32,000 nucleotides of DNA from Ruminococcus albus 7 = DSM 20455. Its GTDB lineage: Bacteria > Bacillota > Clostridia > Oscillospirales > Ruminococcaceae. The notes under the pieces were generated by a model. It saw only the letters and a list, made by a program, of their open reading frames with translations. It was not told the origin of the DNA and made no database searches. The first letter of the stretch is position 1. Each line of letters opens with the position of its first letter. The translations under genes and the position numbers were made by a program. Below are positions 1-12,355 of this stretch, piece by piece. The stretch spans positions 3,300,001 to 3,332,000 of the forward strand of contig NC_014833.1 of NCBI RefSeq assembly GCF_000179635.2, written 5' to 3'.

Positions 1-370
1 TCATCAGGCGATTGCATTCGGCAATTTCGGAGCGGTCGGGAGTGAGATCAACCCTCGCCCGAACACAGTCACGGATATACTCGGTCTTGTTCTTGTACCC
101 GTACTGCTCACACCTTGCTAAAATGTCCTGCATTTCCGATTCCGTAAAGCGAACATTTAGCGTGTAGGACTTCTTCTCCCTCTTGCGTTTCAGGTACTTG
201 CGTTCATCGTCGGAAAGCTCGTCCTCGGACTTGTGTGCAAGGGTATCGTCAAGCTCGGCTCTGACCTCTTGGTCAAGTGCGTGATTGATAGCTCCCTCAT
301 AAGTCATACCCTCGAACTCCATAGCCTTGCGCTTGGGCGGTCTGCCACGCTTCTTTTTCTCGGTTTCCAT
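1..370 (-). CDS. MobC-like (ribbon-helix-helix) relaxosome accessory protein; partial, C-terminus runs off the left edge
   Basis: My own translation from ATG at 370 (SD aaaggaga upstream on the minus strand) gives METEKKKRGRPPKRK...KKSYTLNVRFTESEMQDILARCEQYGYKNKTEYIRDCV. The frame is open to position 2. The V-x-F-T-x-x-E...YIR pattern is typical of the MobC/RHH mobilization family. The ORF is absent from the track because it has no stop inside the window. Confidence 0.6.
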   Translation of the reverse strand, partial: METEKKKRGRPPKRKAMEFEGMTYEGAINHALDQEVRAELDDTLAHKSEDELSDDERKYLKRKREKKSYTLNVRFTESEMQDILARCEQYGYKNKTEYIRDCVRARVDLTPDRSEIAECNRLM

Positions 371-415
371 AGTGGTGTCTCCTTTGTTTTTATTTCGGCG
401 TAAGCCGATATTTTT

Positions 416-656
416 TTGACCGCTGTGCGGTCATTTCGGGGCTTGGGGTGTACCCAACAAGCATTTGGTATTTTCGCTCGCTGTGCGGCGCAAAATACAA
501 TGCTTGTTATTTTTGTTGCGCTATGGCGCATATTTTTTCGCCTGAGCTTATCTCTCTGCTCAGGCTTTCGATGCTCCGTCAGCGAATTCGTGGAGCGAAT
601 GCGACATCTCTCACCGCCGCTTCGGTCGGCGGTATCTCGCTCACGCTCCAGCGTGA
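416..656. other. Dense cluster of stem-loops upstream of the MobC-like gene; candidate oriT or single-strand initiation region
   Basis: Hairpins read directly from the sequence. 416-432: tgaccgc/gcggtca. 457-507: compound stem acaagcat...atgcttgt plus gtatttt...aaaatac. 541-564: cctgagc/gctcagg. 613-633: accgccg/cggcggt with a cttcgg loop. 641-656: tcacgc/gcgtga. The ORFs listed here have implausible composition. Confidence 0.3.
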
Positions 657-819
657 TGCTTTCAATCATCATCGGTGTCAATATTCTAAACTGGTACGGC
701 GCAGTTTCAGCGCAATGAGGGCGGCAATCTGGTGAAAAGTTTGCCGTTGAAATTATCCCCATAACAACTTGACGAACTCGAAAACTCTAATGGCGCACAA
801 AGTTCATGCGCCCTGCGAA

Positions 820-849
820 TAGACAGATAGCTCCGAAATTTGCTATAAT
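820..849 (+). promoter_or_regulatory. Sigma-70-like promoter for the 908..3394 gene set
   Basis: -35 tagaca (820-825), 18-nt spacer, -10 tataat (844-849) preceded by tgc. Confidence 0.35.
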
Positions 850-907
850 ATTATCGTGGGGTTAAATCAAATCCTGCGATACTCCAAACCGAAAAGAGGT
901 GATGCGA

Positions 908-1315
908 ATGAGCAAGAAAGCTAAGAGTGAGGTCGCTGACAACTCTGCTGATACCGTCATGGACGGAGTGCTGTCTGAAAATCAGGCAAAGCTCAACAAA
1001 CTGAACAGTTCTATTCAGGCAGCCTATGAACGCCGTCGTAAGATTATTACGGACAGCAAACTCTACACCTACGATAAGCTCTCACAGCTTTACGGTGGTG
1101 CTGAGGGGCAGGCACTTCTCGATGCAGTCACTGCGGAGCATATGCTGATCGGCAAACTGACCGACAGCGGAATGTCCTACGCTGACATCGAGGGGCTGGT
1201 CGATAGCTCTGACGGTGCAGACAACAAGTCGGGCAATGTTTCCAACAACGGCTCTGCCGATGATGAATTTGTCGGGCAAACTTCTTTCTTCGGAGATAAT
1301 TCCTACAAGGATTAA
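908..1315 (+). CDS. Hypothetical protein of the mobile element
   Basis: ORF 899..1315. The ATG at 908 lies 8 nt after SD agagg (895-899). The protein is acidic, coiled-coil-like and low-complexity at the C-terminus. No family recognised. Confidence 0.5.
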   Translation: MSKKAKSEVADNSADTVMDGVLSENQAKLNKLNSSIQAAYERRRKIITDSKLYTYDKLSQLYGGAEGQALLDAVTAEHMLIGKLTDSGMSYADIEGLVDSSDGADNKSGNVSNNGSADDEFVGQTSFFGDNSYKD

Positions 1316-1474
1316 CATATTTCCGACAACAAAACGATAGCTGTGAGAGGGACGGCAGCAATGCCGTTCCGCACGGCTATAATCACAACCAACAACCATG
1401 AGGGTAAGAGATATAAAGCGAAGCCCTCAAACCAAAAGCATAGAAACAGACAAGCTAAAGGAGAAAAATTCGCT

Positions 1475-1678
1475 ATGAATGAAACAACAACTGCCGCCGT
1501 TGCGGTAACAGATAACGTGTCCGAGTATCATATCGGGCATACAACATACAGAGTGAAAACTGTCTTTAACCCAGCTTTTCGGGAGAGCCTGAGCGATATA
1601 CTTGCAAGGCTCATCACAGAGGACTGTGAGAAAATGCTCGGTGAATCCGGACAAGAACAGGACAAGCAGGCTGTGTGA
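1475..1678 (+). CDS. TnpW-like small transposon-encoded protein
   Basis: Internal ATG at 1475 of ORF 1343..1678 with SD aaaggag (1457-1463). The 67-aa product contains HIGHTTYRVKTVFNP...LSDILARLI, which resembles the TnpW family of Tn4451-type elements (from memory). It sits directly upstream of the serine recombinase. Confidence 0.55.
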   Translation: MNETTTAAVAVTDNVSEYHIGHTTYRVKTVFNPAFRESLSDILARLITEDCEKMLGESGQEQDKQAV

Positions 1679-1723
1679 AATTTTAGCTTGGTGTGTATTG
1701 ACTTTTTCGGCAATGCGCGCTAA

Positions 1724-3394
<1,671 letters not shown>

Positions 3395-3449
3395 CCGACG
3401 GTGTTATGCGACTACACTAAGGGAGAAAAAACTTCTATATCACTACTGT

Positions 3450-3484
3450 GCTTTTGGTCAAGCTTTTCGCGAAAAGCTTGCGGG
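3450..3484. repeat. Left copy of the perfect 35-bp inverted repeat (gcttttggtcaagcttttcgcgaaaagcttgcggg)
   Basis: Exact reverse complement of 4059..4093. It contains the 22-bp perfect palindrome caagcttttcgcgaaaagcttg. Confidence 0.9.
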
Positions 3485-4058
3485 GAGTTTGAGGGGCGGA
3501 GTCCCTCAATCACCAAGGGAAGAAACCAAAATGCAATGCGAACTATAAGAGCGAAACAAACTCCCGACCCAAAAGGCGCGGCAATAAAAGAACTCGGAGC
3601 GCGGACAAACAAACGTTCACGCTCTAACTTTGTGCGTATATATTGCCGCGCCCGTCATCGGACAGCGAAGCGCTTCCGATGACTCGCCCCGTAAGGGGCG
3701 ACCTTGTCCATCGCAGTACAAAGGATAAGAATGAAGCACTCCGGCTGTTAGTAAGCAGATGCCTGTATGATAATATAGCTCGGGGATTGCTGGCTGGTCG
3801 ACGGTTTGGTTCTGGGACATAGCTTTGTGAGCTTTCGCCCCTCGTTCCTCGGGTCAAGCCGTCAAAGACGCTTCGCTGTTTGACGGCGTGCGCGGCAATA
3901 ATTTACGGACAAAGTTTGTGCGGGTGGATTAGTTTTGCACACGCTCGGAATTTTGTTATTGCCGCGCATTTTTGACAGGACGGTTAGTTTGCTGTGCTCT
4001 TATAGATCGCTATGTATTTTTGTTTTGCGCCTTGATGCGAGGGCTCTGCCCTCGCGCT

Positions 4059-4093
4059 CCCGCAAGCTTTTCGCGAAAAGCTTGACCAAAAGC
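4059..4093. repeat. Right copy of the perfect 35-bp inverted repeat
   Basis: cccgcaagcttttcgcgaaaagcttgaccaaaagc is the exact reverse complement of 3450..3484. Confidence 0.9.
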
Positions 4094-4168
4094 TCGGTTC
4101 GCGGCTCGGTTTGTCTGATGCGTCAGTTTGTTTCCGCGCCTATATCCGATAATTTATCCATCTGTGTC

Positions 4169-4197
4169 TTTACTTTTATAAAATAGTATGGTATAAT
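4169..4197 (+). promoter_or_regulatory. purB promoter with extended -10
   Basis: -35 tttact (4169-4174), 17-nt spacer, TG-g-TATAAT (4189-4197). Confidence 0.45.
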
Positions 4198-4309
4198 AAA
4201 TTTATCTGATGCCCCATGCACCTGTCAATTAGTTTTTTACAGTCATATGCATGGGTGTTATCGCGGTAAATATTTTTTCACCCGAAATTATTTGAAAGAG
4301 GTAATGACT

Positions 4310-5749
4310 ATGTCAACTAACAGCTATGAATCCCCCTTCTGCACAAGGTATGCCAGCAAGGAGATGCAGTATATCTTCTCCGCTGACAAAAAGTTCACCA
4401 CATGGAGAAAGCTCTGGGTAGCACTGGCAAGGGCTGAGATGAAGCTGGGTCTTAATGTAACTCAGGCACAGGTGGATGAGCTTGCCGCTCACATCAACGA
4501 TGTTGATTACGCTAAGGCTGCTGAGTATGAAAAGAAGTTCCGCCACGATGTTATGGCTCACGTACATACCTATGGTGAGGTTTGCCCCAACGCCAAGGGC
4601 ATAATCCACATGGGTGCGACTTCCTGCTATGTAGGTGACAACACCGATGTCATCATCATGCGCGATGCTCTGACTATCGTTAAGAGAAAGCTTGTTAAGG
4701 TAATTGACCAGCTGGCTAAGTTCGCTGACAAGTACAAGAACCTGCCTTGTCTGGCTTACACACACCTCCAGCCCGCACAGCTGACTACCGTGGGCAAGAG
4801 AGCTACTCTCTGGTGCAACGAGCTGGTAATGGACCTTGAAGACCTTGATTTCCAGCTCGGCAGACTGAAGCTGCTGGGTTCAAAGGGTACAACAGGTACT
4901 CAGGCTTCATTCATGGAGCTTTTCCACGGCGATACCGACAAGGTAAAGGAGCTTGAAAAGCTGATAGCTGAGGAAATGGGCTTTGATGCAGTTGTTCCCG
5001 TATCGGGTCAGACCTATTCCAGAAAGGTCGACTTCGCTGTATGTCAGGTACTGGCTGCTATCTCACAGAGCGCTATGAAGTTCGGCAACGATATAAGACT
5101 TCTCCAGTCCTTCAAGGAGATAGAAGAACCGTTTGAGAAGACCCAGATAGGTTCTTCCGCTATGGCTTACAAGCGTAACCCCATGAGAGATGAGAGAATC
5201 TGCTCACTGGCAAGATACGTTATGTGCGACGTACTGAACCCTGCATTCACAGCAGGTACACAGTGGTTCGAGAGAACACTGGATGACTCCGCTAACAAGC
5301 GTATCTCCGTAGCTGAGGCTTTCCTCGGTGTTGACGCTATACTCAACATCATGCTGAACGTTACTGACCCCGAGAACGGTCTGGTGGTATACGACAAGAT
5401 CATCACCAAGAGAGTTATGGCTGAACTGCCTTTCATGGCTACCGAGAATGTAATCATGGACGCTTGCGAAAAGGGCGGCGACAGACAGGAGCTTCACGAG
5501 CATATCAGAGAGCTTTCCATGATAGCAGGTGCTCATGTTAAGCAGGACGGTCTTGACAATGATCTTGCTGACCTCATCGCGGCTGACCCGATCTTCAAGG
5601 TAACAAGAGAAGAGCTGGCTGAGATAATGAAGCCCGAGAACTACATCGGCAGATGCCCTCAGCAGGTAGATGAGTTCATAGCTAACGTTGTAAAGCCAAT
5701 CATCGATGCTAACGGCGTATCGGACGATGTTGCAGAGATAAACGTATAA
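4310..5749 (+). CDS. purB: Adenylosuccinate lyase
   Basis: The fumarate-lyase signature GSSAMAYKRNP is present and the N-terminal YESPFCTRYASKEM is typical of PurB. I chose the ATG at 4310 because it follows SD gaaagagg (4295-4302), rather than the track start at 4247. Confidence 0.93.
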   Translation: MSTNSYESPFCTRYASKEMQYIFSADKKFTTWRKLWVALARAEMKLGLNVTQAQVDELAAHINDVDYAKAAEYEKKFRHDVMAHVHTYGEVCPNAKGIIHMGATSCYVGDNTDVIIMRDALTIVKRKLVKVIDQLAKFADKYKNLPCLAYTHLQPAQLTTVGKRATLWCNELVMDLEDLDFQLGRLKLLGSKGTTGTQASFMELFHGDTDKVKELEKLIAEEMGFDAVVPVSGQTYSRKVDFAVCQVLAAISQSAMKFGNDIRLLQSFKEIEEPFEKTQIGSSAMAYKRNPMRDERICSLARYVMCDVLNPAFTAGTQWFERTLDDSANKRISVAEAFLGVDAILNIMLNVTDPENGLVVYDKIITKRVMAELPFMATENVIMDACEKGGDRQELHEHIRELSMIAGAHVKQDGLDNDLADLIAADPIFKVTREELAEIMKPENYIGRCPQQVDEFIANVVKPIIDANGVSDDVAEINV

Positions 5750-6700: not shown

Positions 6701-7327
6701 ATGGATATAACTAAATATCAGAAAGCGGCGGACGAGATACTTGACCGCCTTATAAATGCCATGCGTGGCGGCAGGGCGGAGATACACCCTCAGTCGCTGA
6801 TATGTGCGGTGGGCGCACTGGCGGGATACTCCTGTCAGAAAGATGTGCGCGTGATGTTCATGAAAAAGAACGGTCTTTCGGAGGACAAGGTGTTCATGAT
6901 AATGACCGACAAGCAGGGCAGGAAATTCTATTTCGGAGACCTTATAAACGAACCTCTCGTCAACGAGAAGTATTCGGTGTGGTCGATGATAGGCGGCGCT
7001 GTAAAACAGCACGGCGGTAAACTGCCCGATGTGAACGACATATTCCGCTACATATCCTACACCGTGGGTGGCGAGAATTTCGGAAAGCCCCGCGCCTGCG
7101 AAATTGGCGATGATATGGGCATCTACCTGAAACAGCTGTGGCTCCCCCTTAATGAGATAGCAAGCAGGTATGCCGAGGACGGCGAGCTGCATATCATATA
7201 CGGCATTGCTCTGCAAAAGGCGGTATACGCGGCAGGCAAGCAGATGGACGTCACCGAGGCGGCGCGGATAGCTATGGAGAGCGCCGTCAGCATGAGCAAG
7301 GTGGATTACAACAGTTATTGCAAGTAA
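6701..7327 (+). CDS. Hypothetical protein (208 aa), family not recognised
   Basis: The ATG at 6701 lies 4 nt after the DUF2085 stop. Composition is coding-like along the whole length. A shadow ORF lies on the opposite strand. Confidence 0.6.
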   Translation: MDITKYQKAADEILDRLINAMRGGRAEIHPQSLICAVGALAGYSCQKDVRVMFMKKNGLSEDKVFMIMTDKQGRKFYFGDLINEPLVNEKYSVWSMIGGAVKQHGGKLPDVNDIFRYISYTVGGENFGKPRACEIGDDMGIYLKQLWLPLNEIASRYAEDGELHIIYGIALQKAVYAAGKQMDVTEAARIAMESAVSMSKVDYNSYCK

Positions 7328-7387: not shown

Positions 7388-8656
7388 ATGAAGATCGAAA
7401 CTAAATGTTTGCATGAGGGATATACCCCCAAGAACGGAGAACCCAGAGTTGTGCCCATAGTACAGAGCACTACTTATGTGTATGACTCCACCGATGCTGT
7501 GGCTGCGGTATTTGATGACCCCACCCTCAGCCTTATTTACGGACGTTTTGAGAACCCCACTACTGACGCAGTTGAAAAGAAGATCGCTGCTCTCGAGGGC
7601 GGTGTGGCAGCTATGTGTACTTCTTCCGGTCAGGCTGCTTCCCTCTGCTCGATACTGAACATCTGCGAGAGCGGTGACAGCTTTATCGCTTCTACCGCTA
7701 TATACGGCGGCACTATCAACCTGTTCAGCATAACACTGAAAAAGCTGGGCATCGAGTGCATATGGGTAGACCCAGACTGCACAGAGGAAGAGCTTATGGC
7801 TGCATTCAAGCCCAACACCAAGCTGGTATTCGGTGAGACAATCGCTAACCCCTCACTGACTGTACTTGATATCGAAAAGTTCGCAAAGGCTGCACACGCT
7901 AACGGCGTTCCGCTGATAGTTGACAACACCTTTGCTACACCTATACTTTGCAGACCTATAGAGTGGGGTGCTGATATCGTTATACACTCCACATCAAAGT
8001 ACATGGACGGCCATGCAGTACAGGTAGGCGGCGTTATCGTTGACAGCGGCAAGTTCGACTGGACAGCAAGCGGCAAGTTCCCCTGCATGACTGAACCCGA
8101 TGAGAGCTATCACGGCACTATTTACACCGAGAAGTATCCTTTTGCACCTTTCATCGTAAAGGCTCGTATGCAGCTGATGAGAGACTTCGGCTGCTACCCT
8201 GCTGCTAACTCCTCTTTCCTGCTGAACCTCGGTCTGGAAACACTGCCTGTACGTATGAAGCAGTATGTTGAGAACGCTAAGATCGTAGCTGAGTACCTGA
8301 ACAATAACGACAAGGTCGAGAGCGTGTTCTATCCCGGTCTGGAGGGCAACAAGTACTATCCTCTGGTACAGAAGTATCTGCCTCTTGGTGCTTCTGGCGT
8401 TATCAGCTTCTCTATCAAGGGCGGCAGACCTGTTGCTGTCAAGTTCATGGATAGCCTGAAACTTGCTTCCAACGAAGTTCACGTTGCAGATATCCGTACC
8501 TGCGTACTGCACCCCGCTTCTGCTACACACAGACAGCTGACCGATGAACAGCTGGTAGCCGCAGGCATCGACGGCGGTATGATAAGATTCTCCGTTGGTC
8601 TTGAAAACGTTGAGGATATACTGGACGATCTGAAGCAGGCATTTGCGGCTATCTGA
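7388..8656 (+). CDS. metY: O-acetylhomoserine sulfhydrylase / cysteine synthase family PLP enzyme
   Basis: 422 aa. The Cys/Met-metabolism PLP motif HSTSKYMDGH is present. N-terminal TKCLHEGY and C-terminal IRFSVGLENVEDILDDL are typical of the family. SD aaagga lies upstream. Confidence 0.9.
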   Translation: MKIETKCLHEGYTPKNGEPRVVPIVQSTTYVYDSTDAVAAVFDDPTLSLIYGRFENPTTDAVEKKIAALEGGVAAMCTSSGQAASLCSILNICESGDSFIASTAIYGGTINLFSITLKKLGIECIWVDPDCTEEELMAAFKPNTKLVFGETIANPSLTVLDIEKFAKAAHANGVPLIVDNTFATPILCRPIEWGADIVIHSTSKYMDGHAVQVGGVIVDSGKFDWTASGKFPCMTEPDESYHGTIYTEKYPFAPFIVKARMQLMRDFGCYPAANSSFLLNLGLETLPVRMKQYVENAKIVAEYLNNNDKVESVFYPGLEGNKYYPLVQKYLPLGASGVISFSIKGGRPVAVKFMDSLKLASNEVHVADIRTCVLHPASATHRQLTDEQLVAAGIDGGMIRFSVGLENVEDILDDLKQAFAAI

Positions 8657-12281: not shown

Positions 12282-12355
12282 GTCGCTGTAGCTCAGCTGG
12301 ATAGAGCGGCCGCCTCCTAAGCGGCAGGCCGGAGGTTCGAATCCTCTCAGCGACG
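12282..12355 (+). tRNA. tRNA-Arg (anticodon CCT)
   Basis: Manual cloverleaf. Acceptor gtcgctg/cagcgac. D arm gctc-agctggata-gagc. Anticodon stem gccgc/gcggc with loop ctCCTaa. Variable region aggcc. T arm ggagg-ttcgaat-cctct. Discriminator g. No encoded CCA. Confidence 0.9.

Follow-up and report, generated by a model that had tools for sequence, protein, structure and literature searches.

What kind of element is the long palindrome at positions 3450-4093 of a 32,000-nucleotide stretch of the Ruminococcus albus 7 chromosome (contig NC_014833.1, positions 3,300,001 to 3,332,000; this whole stretch is the window)? An initial annotation, made from the sequence alone, described it as 644 bp of noncoding, imperfect inverted symmetry rich in local hairpins and offered three possibilities: a large structured noncoding RNA, a pair of paralogous RNAs, or a structured DNA repeat resembling REPINs or miniature inverted-repeat transposable elements (MITEs). 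The last of these is the option favoured here. With a probability of roughly 0.6, the palindrome is the two-arm form of an interspersed, mosaic, nested-palindromic DNA repeat of the R. albus group, similar in kind to repetitive extragenic palindromic (REP) sequences and bacterial interspersed mosaic elements (BIMEs) or to foldback MITEs.

A dispersed family of hairpin-bearing arms

The inverted symmetry is real. Global alignment of 3450-3771 with the reverse complement of 3772-4093 gives 228 identical columns out of 333 (68%), and the arm-versus-arm score of 212 stands far above that of 200 shuffles (-61 +/- 13, maximum -12). The outer 35 nt are identical at the two ends, as first described (3450-3484 equals 4059-4093 inverted), and the terminal inverted repeats of the window copy, identical or nearly so, span 35-40 nt. 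Within them lies a perfect 22-nt palindrome, H0 (CAAGCTTTTCGCGAAAAGCTTG), of which the window holds no third copy even at three mismatches. The interval 3450-4093 is correct for the palindrome but not for the limits of the repeat. At the right end the repeat extends past 4093 through an extra hairpin module to about 4141; at the left end it is truncated at 3450-3454 by a mobile-element junction, and the missing outer ~25-40 nt sit about 10 kb upstream, beside the PGM gene. The region is noncoding, in agreement with the initial annotation. Its open reading frames (ORFs) are 59-93 aa long, overlap on both strands and have no Pfam match, and alleles of the PGM-purB locus differ by 1-nt indels; on these grounds protein coding is ruled out.

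An exact scan of 185,579 species-representative genomes with the central 20-mer of H0 returned 55 loci (L-numbers below label the retrieved loci and alleles), 46 of which fall in three R. albus-group genomes: KH2T6, AR67 and the metagenome-assembled genome (MAG) RUI259. Every R. albus match is surrounded by 250-330 nt homologous to the window arms. The nine remaining matches stand alone in unrelated taxa, their flanks dissimilar, and H0 with homologous flanks was found in R. albus-group genomes only. An nhmmer profile built from 47 arms and searched in 46 blocks of 8 kb around the exact 20-mer matches gave 113 matches, with at least 69 arms at 100 bits or more (26, 25 and 18 per genome, all lower bounds). 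About 21 copies consist of two inward-facing arms, most of them 580-730 bp and some 295-475 bp, and about 25 consist of one arm of ~300 bp. The copy number is thus that of a dispersed repeat and not of a single-copy gene. Both an isolate assembly and independently assembled metagenomes contain the repeat, which rules out an assembly artefact. A literature search on the H0 sequence and on the repeats of the organism found no published description of the family. A Parabacteroides MAG (L019:1005-1036) matches H0 and its nearest flanks over 27 nt (GCAAGCTTTTCGCGAAAAGCTTGCGGG); the rest of the repeat is absent around it, and the match is probably due to chance, extended by the palindrome.

The left arm of the window is 82-85% identical to arms in L001, L023, L042 and L055, and the right arm 82-87% identical to arms in L012, L020, L028 and L031. 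As the two are only 68% identical to each other, they belong to different subfamilies, X and Y, and the same asymmetry is seen again in L017, L025, L028, L031, L040 and L045. Each arm is ordered, from outer to inner end, as terminal segment, H0, hairpins H1-H4 and inner tail. In the window X is the left arm and Y the right, with the following parts:

3450-3701, + strand (outer to inner): left arm, subfamily X, without its outer terminal segment; nhmmer match 3449-3727, E = 1e-73
3459-3480 and 4063-4084, no strand assigned: left and right copies of H0
3489-3509, + strand: H1 of the left arm, ttgaggg/ccctcaa
3575-3652, + strand: H2 of the left arm, after an A-run; outer stem 3575-3586/3641-3652, inner stem 3597-3606/3615-3624
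3654-3683, + strand: H3 of the left arm, gtcatcgga/tccgatgac, apex GCGAAGC
3684-3701, + strand: H4 of the left arm, tcgcccc-gtaa-ggggcga, the tetraloop form that marks subfamily X
3702-3834, no strand assigned: the middle of the two-arm element, with its centre and the inner tails of both arms; the AR67 and KH2T6 copies have collinear centres
3835-4095, - strand (outer to inner): right arm, subfamily Y; nhmmer match 4095-3813, E = 2.9e-77
3835-3857, 3858-3887, 3889-3968, 4037-4055 and 4063-4084: H4, H3, H2, H1 and H0 of the right arm
4096-4141, - strand: outer 'B' module of the right end, a cgcgg...ccgcg hairpin also present in other copies

The hairpins first described, three numbered ones and a GNRA hairpin, are all present as H1-H4 and dominate the minimum-free-energy folds of both arms (z-scores -5.35 and -4.39). 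Two details required correction. The stems of H2 stand, but the supposed 54-nt loop is itself a hairpin on the inner stem 3597-3606/3615-3624; and the second tcgcccc copy at 3835-3841, taken for a competitor of the GNRA stem, is the homologous H4 of the right arm.

Across the family, all copies agree at 90-100% over the terminal ~36 nt, compared with an average column identity of 55% in the interior. The terminal segment has the consensus ...GCAAACNAGCGGAAAACTGCCAAGGAAGAGAGCTTTTGGTC, with variants; the B module of the window lacks 29 nt that bear a terminal-segment motif and are found in L056 and L064. H0 has a family form (AAGCTTTTCG/CGAAAAGCTT), a fully compensated form (AAGCCTTTCG/CGAAAGGCTT; T-A to C-G) in 11 of 50 arms, and a third form (AAGCCTCGCGCTAGCAGGCTT). 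H1 carries the loop CAGAG on stems such as GCGAGGG, TTGAGGG and CTCGAGAGG, with an optional extra hairpin beside it (CACAGTCAGC-AAA-GCTGACTGT), and is followed by a linker of about 50 nt in two forms. H2 is a hairpin of ~90 nt with outer stem GGCGCGGCAATA and inner stem GAGCGTGGAC, GAGCGTATGC or similar. An A-run precedes it in 39 of 46 arms, so a T-run follows H2 on the opposite strand, an arrangement that is terminator-like for inner-to-outer transcription. H3 comprises at least five stem variants beneath the conserved apex GCG-N(N)A-GC, and H4 (TCGaCCC...GGGGCGA) has either the loop GAGGAACGA or a GNNA tetraloop. There are two types of inner tail, and two-arm copies are asymmetric across a centre with its own small dyad: the Y arm combines the long H4 loop with the tail AAAACTCGCAAACT..., and the X arm the tetraloop H4 with the tail CCTTGGCTACCGCAGTAC.... 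No match to the palindrome was found in plasmid and phage collections (blastn, 'distant' mode), nor in viral contigs scanned for the H0 and H4 motifs.

Two further short sequences accompany some copies. One, (AATTCAT)n followed by TGTTGGCAGGGCAAC..., lies beside or inside the terminal segment at L056:5020-5100, where it separates a half-terminus from a complete terminus, and in the flanks of L007, L012, L014, L026, L032 and L046. The other is a ~20-nt unit (cgtataccaaagtatacgaccgtat and variants) that forms clusters after the inner end of some arms (L010:~150-330, L014:~7600-7720, L007:~4600-4750) and stands in for the inner part of H2 in others.

Pairing was assessed by imposing an H0-H4 structure on 50 aligned arms, with the 3' partners slid by 1-3 columns and 500 shuffles as controls. 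In this alignment 90.8% of cells pair, compared with 34-49% when the partners are slid; changes on both sides occur in 235 cells against 90.8 +/- 9.5 in the shuffles, none of which reaches the observed value, and the covariation score is 0.244 against 0.125. H0 is nearly invariant and pairs in 99.8% of cells. In H1, three stem positions covary in 16-18 of the arms, and in H3, where 97.7% of cells pair, 18-30 of the arms carry two-sided changes at five of the eight pairs. RNAalifold recovered H0, H1 and H3 independently. The stems are almost purely Watson-Crick and occur as whole-stem variants without G-U intermediates (UA:39/CG:11; CG:19/AU:16/UA:14).

Conservation therefore acts on hairpin structure, not on protein, at the level of the family. 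The initial annotation had drawn the same conclusion from the two arms of the window, reading their compensated differences as covariation between paralogues; that part does not stand, since both window versions of H1 and H3 recur at many other loci and genomes, and the differences are circulating module variants in arms of different subfamilies and not local co-evolution. Its view that one long hairpin is not the conserved unit, and that local hairpins are kept through fully compensated changes, is borne out in the 50 arms. The unit of conservation is the local hairpin and not the 644-bp hairpin, and discrete, self-complementary stem variants are reassorted among the copies.

Rearrangement at orthologous sites and use as an attachment site

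Next to the repeat, the window has the following features:

1769-3394, + strand: large serine recombinase (LSR) gene, 541 aa (Pfam Resolvase, Recombinase, Zn_ribbon_recom and DUF4368), the last gene of an integrative and mobilisable element (IME), abutting the repeat
3435-3459, + strand: right attachment junction (attR), where the right end of the IME (..tatatcactactgt) meets TGGTC of the repeat across the shared core GCTTT (3450-3454)
4169-4197, + strand: purB promoter, TTTACT-17-TGnTATAAT, outside the repeat and identical in all alleles of the locus
4310-5749, + strand: purB (adenylosuccinate lyase), start at 4310, the chromosomal flank used for finding orthologous alleles

The queries for alleles were the exact purB protein, a flank-specific DNA pattern and three variants of PGM with about 99-100% identity to the L056 query. 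Twelve distinct PGM-purB spacer alleles of closely related strains were obtained from MAGs and metagenomes; PGM and purB are identical or near-identical among them, and none carries the recombinase element. In seven (L056, identical to L085 and L086; L058, L077, L079, L083, L084 and L087) the whole element is inverted relative to the window, as it is in the partial contig L062. The reverse complement of window 3448-4095 agrees with the L056 element at 601 of 656 positions (92%), with the first 157 nt identical, and scores 1025 in this orientation as against 261 in the forward one. The centre, 3702-3834, is 99-100% identical in the seven inverted alleles, and the inversion breakpoints fall within the identical terminal repeats. 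A nested difference is seen in L064 (identical to L076, L080 and L081), L075 (identical to L082) and L078, which keep the outer arms of the whole-inversion group while their inner ~150-200 bp are best matched in the opposite orientation at 72-87% identity. L063 has altogether different modules, and the H0 type and the segment of H1 plus linker also vary among alleles. The two orientations are seen between strains only, and the sole allele in the window orientation is the one with the IME. Recombination of attR with an inverted, intact right-end site, by the integrase or by RecA, would give the window arrangement.

Public contigs with PGM (L066-L068 and L070-L074 from Logan; L059-L061) often end 114 nt after its stop codon, ~28 nt into the IME, and purB contigs begin inside or near H0. 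These ends are probably assembly-graph breaks at a multi-copy sequence, and a few of the shorter contigs may derive from transcripts.

Other orthologous sites differ in comparable ways. Two arms face a short form in the pair L017/L020 and one arm in the pair L040/L088; a short form faces a minimal one (terminal segment, H0, terminal segment) in L042/L009 and L004/L032; and the repeat is present in L033 and absent from L010, where the empty site holds a canonical terminator and ~100 nt have been replaced. The GH25 locus (L040), which offered a second look for inversion, has one close relative only and shows the difference between one arm and two, with no inversion. Together with the PGM-purB alleles, these sites show that the repeat is a recombination hot spot, subject to whole and nested inversions, module replacement, collapse and differences between one and two arms. 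The minimal forms are ~110 bp long (L009:~60-170 and L032:~6990-7110) and consist of a terminal segment, H0 and an inverted terminal segment; long forms occupy the same sites in other genomes, as if the interior had been deleted.

The IME occupies ~10 kb between PGM and the repeat, covering window 1-3454 and continuing upstream (L057, L065); the PGM side and the upstream IME genes were read on contig JHYT01000002.1 (assembly GCA_000621285.1). Its genes encode DUF6809, a D12 methyltransferase, an AlwI-like endonuclease, a relaxase, a NikA-like protein, a TnpW-like ORF (1343-1678) and the DUF4368 serine recombinase. The element resembles those of the TnpX/TndX type (Tn4451/Tn5397 family) in its DUF4368 recombinase, TnpW-like ORF, relaxase and short shared core; the likeness concerns the IME and not the repeat, and the target here is multi-copy, with dozens of sites per genome.

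In the window, attR at 3440-3462 reads ...tcactactgtGCTTT up to the junction and TGGTCAAGC beyond it (also given as cactactgtGCTTT followed by TGGTC). On the PGM side, the left junction (attL) reads gagaGCTTT followed by acgacagtaggc (gagaGCTTT followed by acgacagtagg), and the empty site of IME-free alleles reads aagaagagaGCTTTTGGTCAAGC (spacer ...aagaagagaGCTTTTGGTCAAGCTTTTCG...; site gagaGCTTTTGGTC). Empty site, attL and attR have a common short core at the exact junction, as expected of the bacterial attachment site (attB) of a serine integrase, and the reconstructed element site (attP) has dyad symmetry about this core. Homologous recombinase genes end at the same repeat position in L020, L024, L031, L050 and L055, with the opposite junction at L006; the recombinase genes of these related elements are ~65% identical in DNA over the aligned region. 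Because related elements stand at the same terminal-segment position at several loci, the junction sequences identify the terminal segment as a multi-copy attB for serine-recombinase elements. At L025:2164-2721 an ORF of the SUKH/SMI1-KNR4 type (immunity-protein-like) runs into H0 with its junction at the same TTTGGTC, which suggests another inserted cassette.

Junctions of the IME type, in which ...gaaca is followed by TT(T/G)GGTCAAGC, occur at L006:4912 and in L020, L024, L031, L050 and L055 (KH2T6, AR67). The remaining window genes are ordinary chromosomal ones (CotH, an AraC-type regulator, an arabinofuranosidase, RecQ and others), and a tRNA gene lies at 12282-12355.

DNA repeat, RNA domain, MITE or invertible switch

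The hairpin constraint is real, and on balance a DNA repeat is the likelier reading, one whose side effects on transcripts would be REP/BIME-like. Under this reading the family would persist as a non-autonomous DNA element, and what keeps its hairpins perfect may be a constraint at the level of hairpin or cruciform DNA, copying templated by the hairpins themselves (template switching, gene conversion between copies), or both. At gene 3' ends, where copies usually lie, transcripts reading in would gain a stack of stable hairpins, and transcription entering the far arm would meet H2 and then a U-rich run. The effect on the cell would resemble that of REP/BIME, namely that transcript ends are protected or terminated and genes insulated from one another.

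Several points weigh against the DNA repeat. Template switching as a source of perfect stems is proposed by analogy with work on quasipalindromes (PMC3820800). No target-site duplication is seen in L033/L010, the one occupied/empty pair, the ends of the repeat being not sharply defined in other copies. No autonomous partner was found in the 46 blocks of 8 kb around repeat copies, in which no gene lies between inward-facing termini. Several positions are kept between KH2T6 and AR67, with flanks about 86-94% identical; many copies are thus old residents, and any recent mobility is hypothetical. The remaining points concern strand and transcription, and most of them agree with an RNA role as well as with a DNA repeat, or better. 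Single interior mismatches in stems of at least 9 bp, read on the outer-to-inner strand, are G.T in 11 cases and A.C in one, although several cases share descent and strand-biased C-to-T mutation would give the same excess. The same strand is 30% A against 18% T, being A-rich in the unpaired parts; loops are of the GNNA type; and single arms are oriented with local transcription in 17 informative cases against 4, a gene-relative orientation that is confounded with replication direction in Firmicutes. A 3'-end role, finally, cannot be general, since at the window locus the canonical intrinsic terminator of PGM (ACCCGCAGG...CCTGCGGGT, then ATTTTT; L065:4223-4262, upstream of the window) stands between the stop codon and the repeat, which is hence not simply the 3' untranslated region (UTR) of PGM.

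The strand-related points are also what speaks for a structured RNA domain, in which the arm would be co-transcribed with the gene upstream of it as a ~300-nt module of 3' UTRs or intergenic regions, or processed into a small RNA; selection would then bear on the RNA fold, with DNA dispersal secondary. To them may be added the strong covariation over five helices, the conserved loops adjoining variable stems (GNRA-type in some H4 variants) and the setting of single arms: in 20 of 25, the gene at the outer end reads towards the arm. The stop codon of this gene is usually found 20-40 nt ahead of profile position 1, which places the start of the terminal segment at the stop codon, and in L033 the repeat stands where the orthologue L010 has an intrinsic terminator.

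This account is nevertheless unlikely. Over 3300-4300 no Rfam family, among them ROOL, GOLLD, HEARO and the group II intron domains, reaches its gathering threshold (window-wide, a tRNA is the sole match), and at E <= 10 there are two matches at chance level, RT-17 (16 bits) and mir-375 (14 bits). With nothing credible in Rfam and a sequence that is dispersed, the initial comparison with large single-copy RNAs of the ROOL or GOLLD class fails. No sigma-70-like promoter with at least 10 of 12 matches lies inside 3450-4095; the promoter and terminator scan, which is blind to hairpins with long structured loops, yielded the purB promoter and a hairpin after the recombinase gene only. The covarying helices are nearly without G-U, and whole stems are swapped without wobble intermediates. 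One arm of a two-arm copy is always antisense to any transcript, and although 9 of 20 two-arm copies lie between convergent genes, 4 of 20 have both neighbours reading away. A comparison of minimum free energies favoured the strand opposite to that expected, the antisense being lower by 5.3 kcal/mol; it is confounded by U-richness and was discarded. Counts of G-U pairs in such folds are uninformative as each strand refolds, and the symmetric count of single mismatches was used in their place. The PGM terminator, the shared descent behind the G.T excess and the confounding of gene orientation with replication direction likewise detract from an RNA role.

The hairpin after the recombinase stop codon (3386-3412) has a 10-bp stem, GTCGCATAAC/GTTATGCGAC, and scores as a terminator on the minus strand only.

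A classical MITE, that is, an element derived from an insertion sequence by deletion and mobilised in trans by a transposase recognising ~60-nt terminal inverted repeats (terminal segment plus H0), is improbable. It would explain why the terminal ~36 nt are so much better conserved than the interior, the genome-wide dispersal and the presence or absence of the repeat at one locus (L033 against L010), and three AGCTTTT 7-mers at the end, read by eye, resemble multiple protein-binding sites. The filled/empty pair shows, however, a ~100-nt replacement in place of a clean insertion with duplication; no pair of termini encloses a gene in the blocks searched; many copies have one arm; and orthologous positions are kept over species-level divergence.

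A programmed switch of the inverton or shufflon kind (Hin/Gin, Mpi, Rci), in which a site-specific recombinase acting at H0 flips the segment and changes the expression of its neighbours, has a low probability. As in those systems, strains differ in the orientation of a segment enclosed by conserved inverted repeats, and the rearrangements are nested. The segment between the identical 35-nt repeats is flipped relative to seven alleles (92% identity overall, 99-100% in the centre), the nearly invariant H0 looks like a dimer-binding site, and a serine recombinase gene adjoins it in the window. The flipped state is known, though, from one strain, the IME carrier, and the adjacent recombinase is the integrase of the IME, which the other alleles lack. 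The breakpoints lie at more than one site; those of the other rearrangements fall inside the arms and not at H0, a pattern consistent with template switching or homologous recombination between inverted repeats. A dedicated invertase, an internal promoter and a coding segment are all lacking, and as the content is nearly symmetric, flipping would change little. Half of the copies have one arm and cannot invert, and the two orientations were seen between strains, not within one sample.

That the palindrome is part of the serine-recombinase element (an end, an origin of transfer or a single-strand origin) may be dismissed: although it directly follows the recombinase gene and five other copies abut such genes, the boundary of the IME, as set by attL and attR, lies at 3450-3454, an IME is absent from the neighbourhood of most copies, and twelve IME-free alleles with the full repeat and an intact terminal segment rule it out.

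Relation to known repeats and meaning of the family

The R. albus repeat is closest in its working to REP/BIME, REPIN, foldback-MITE and bcr repeats (PMC3184786), yet it has none of their family-specific marks: neither target-site duplication nor partner transposase was found, nor a sequence relationship. REP/BIME of Enterobacteriaceae are extragenic, multi-copy mosaics of alternating palindromic units and linkers; they concentrate between convergent genes and at gene 3' ends, have links with recombination and are targeted by insertion sequences (PMC3184786; PMC1525189). The R. albus repeat is likewise extragenic and multi-copy, with mosaic modules, a bias to 3' ends, recombination and mobile elements that target it, and its BIME-like character shows in the reassorted modules and in the 20/25 single arms and 9/20 pairs described above. 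Its use as an attachment site parallels the targeting of REP sequences by insertion sequences (PMC1525189). It differs from BIMEs in that its arms are ~300 nt long with five hairpins, as against palindromic units of ~35 nt, its host is a Firmicute, and the element that targets it is a serine-recombinase IME, where BIMEs are targeted by insertion sequences. Read by eye in the arm alignment, the modules do not resemble the enterobacterial REP/PU consensus.

REPINs are REP doublets of ~100 bp mobilised by RAYT transposases, the RAYT gene being flanked by REPs. They share with the R. albus repeat the dispersed, hairpin-capable unit formed by diverged inverted copies with compensated stems. Unlike in REPINs, the arms come from different subfamilies and the long hairpin is not conserved; the 22-nt palindrome H0 stands at both ends, but the repeated unit is the ~300-nt, multi-hairpin arm. 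The flanking genes looked at were LSR-type IME genes, a SUKH-domain gene and housekeeping genes, with no RAYT gene among them.

The bcr repeats of the Bacillus cereus group are interspersed and 155-310 bp long; bcr1 has a cruciform-like fold with compensatory changes and is transcribed, and bcr5 flanks a resolvase-containing cluster (PMC3184786). With 5-bp direct repeats and a non-conserved genomic distribution, bcr1 behaves as a mobile element. The R. albus family is similarly an interspersed Firmicute repeat whose fold is kept by compensatory changes. It differs from bcr1 in that no duplication was found, several positions are conserved between species and there is no sequence similarity.

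Correia elements (NEMIS) are 100-155 bp long, with a TA duplication, promoters and an IHF site. Terminal inverted repeats, intergenic location and hairpin formation are common to Correia elements, MITEs, foldback elements and the R. albus repeat, and foldback elements also have long modular inverted arms; the TA duplication, promoter and IHF site of Correia elements were not found in the R. albus repeat. The family differs from known repeats in its size, its nested arms with reassorting stems, its inversion and shuffling between near-identical strains and its use as an attachment site.

A more far-reaching possibility, to which little weight is given, is that the ~300-nt arm is a new multi-copy structured domain acting as a single strand (co-transcribed RNA or single-stranded DNA) whose hairpin loops are read by a dedicated protein; the two-arm form would then be bidirectional, and inversion and shuffling would tune gene ends locus by locus. 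If this were true, R. albus would have dozens of copies of an undescribed large cis-acting RNA or single-stranded DNA element, not a passive repeat.

For annotation, the family explains long 'non-coding palindromes' and assembly breaks in R. albus-group genomes, where contigs end at H0 or at the IME junction, and its recognition guards against calling copies ORFs or unique noncoding RNAs. The dozens of paralogues that swap whole stems provide a natural experiment in which selection on RNA can be compared with hairpin-templated copying of DNA. As a landing pad, the repeat offers a multi-copy attachment site to mobilisable elements with restriction-modification genes, which bears on the spread of such elements and on multi-targeting integrases. 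It is also a source of intergenic structural variation among strains of a major rumen fibre degrader.

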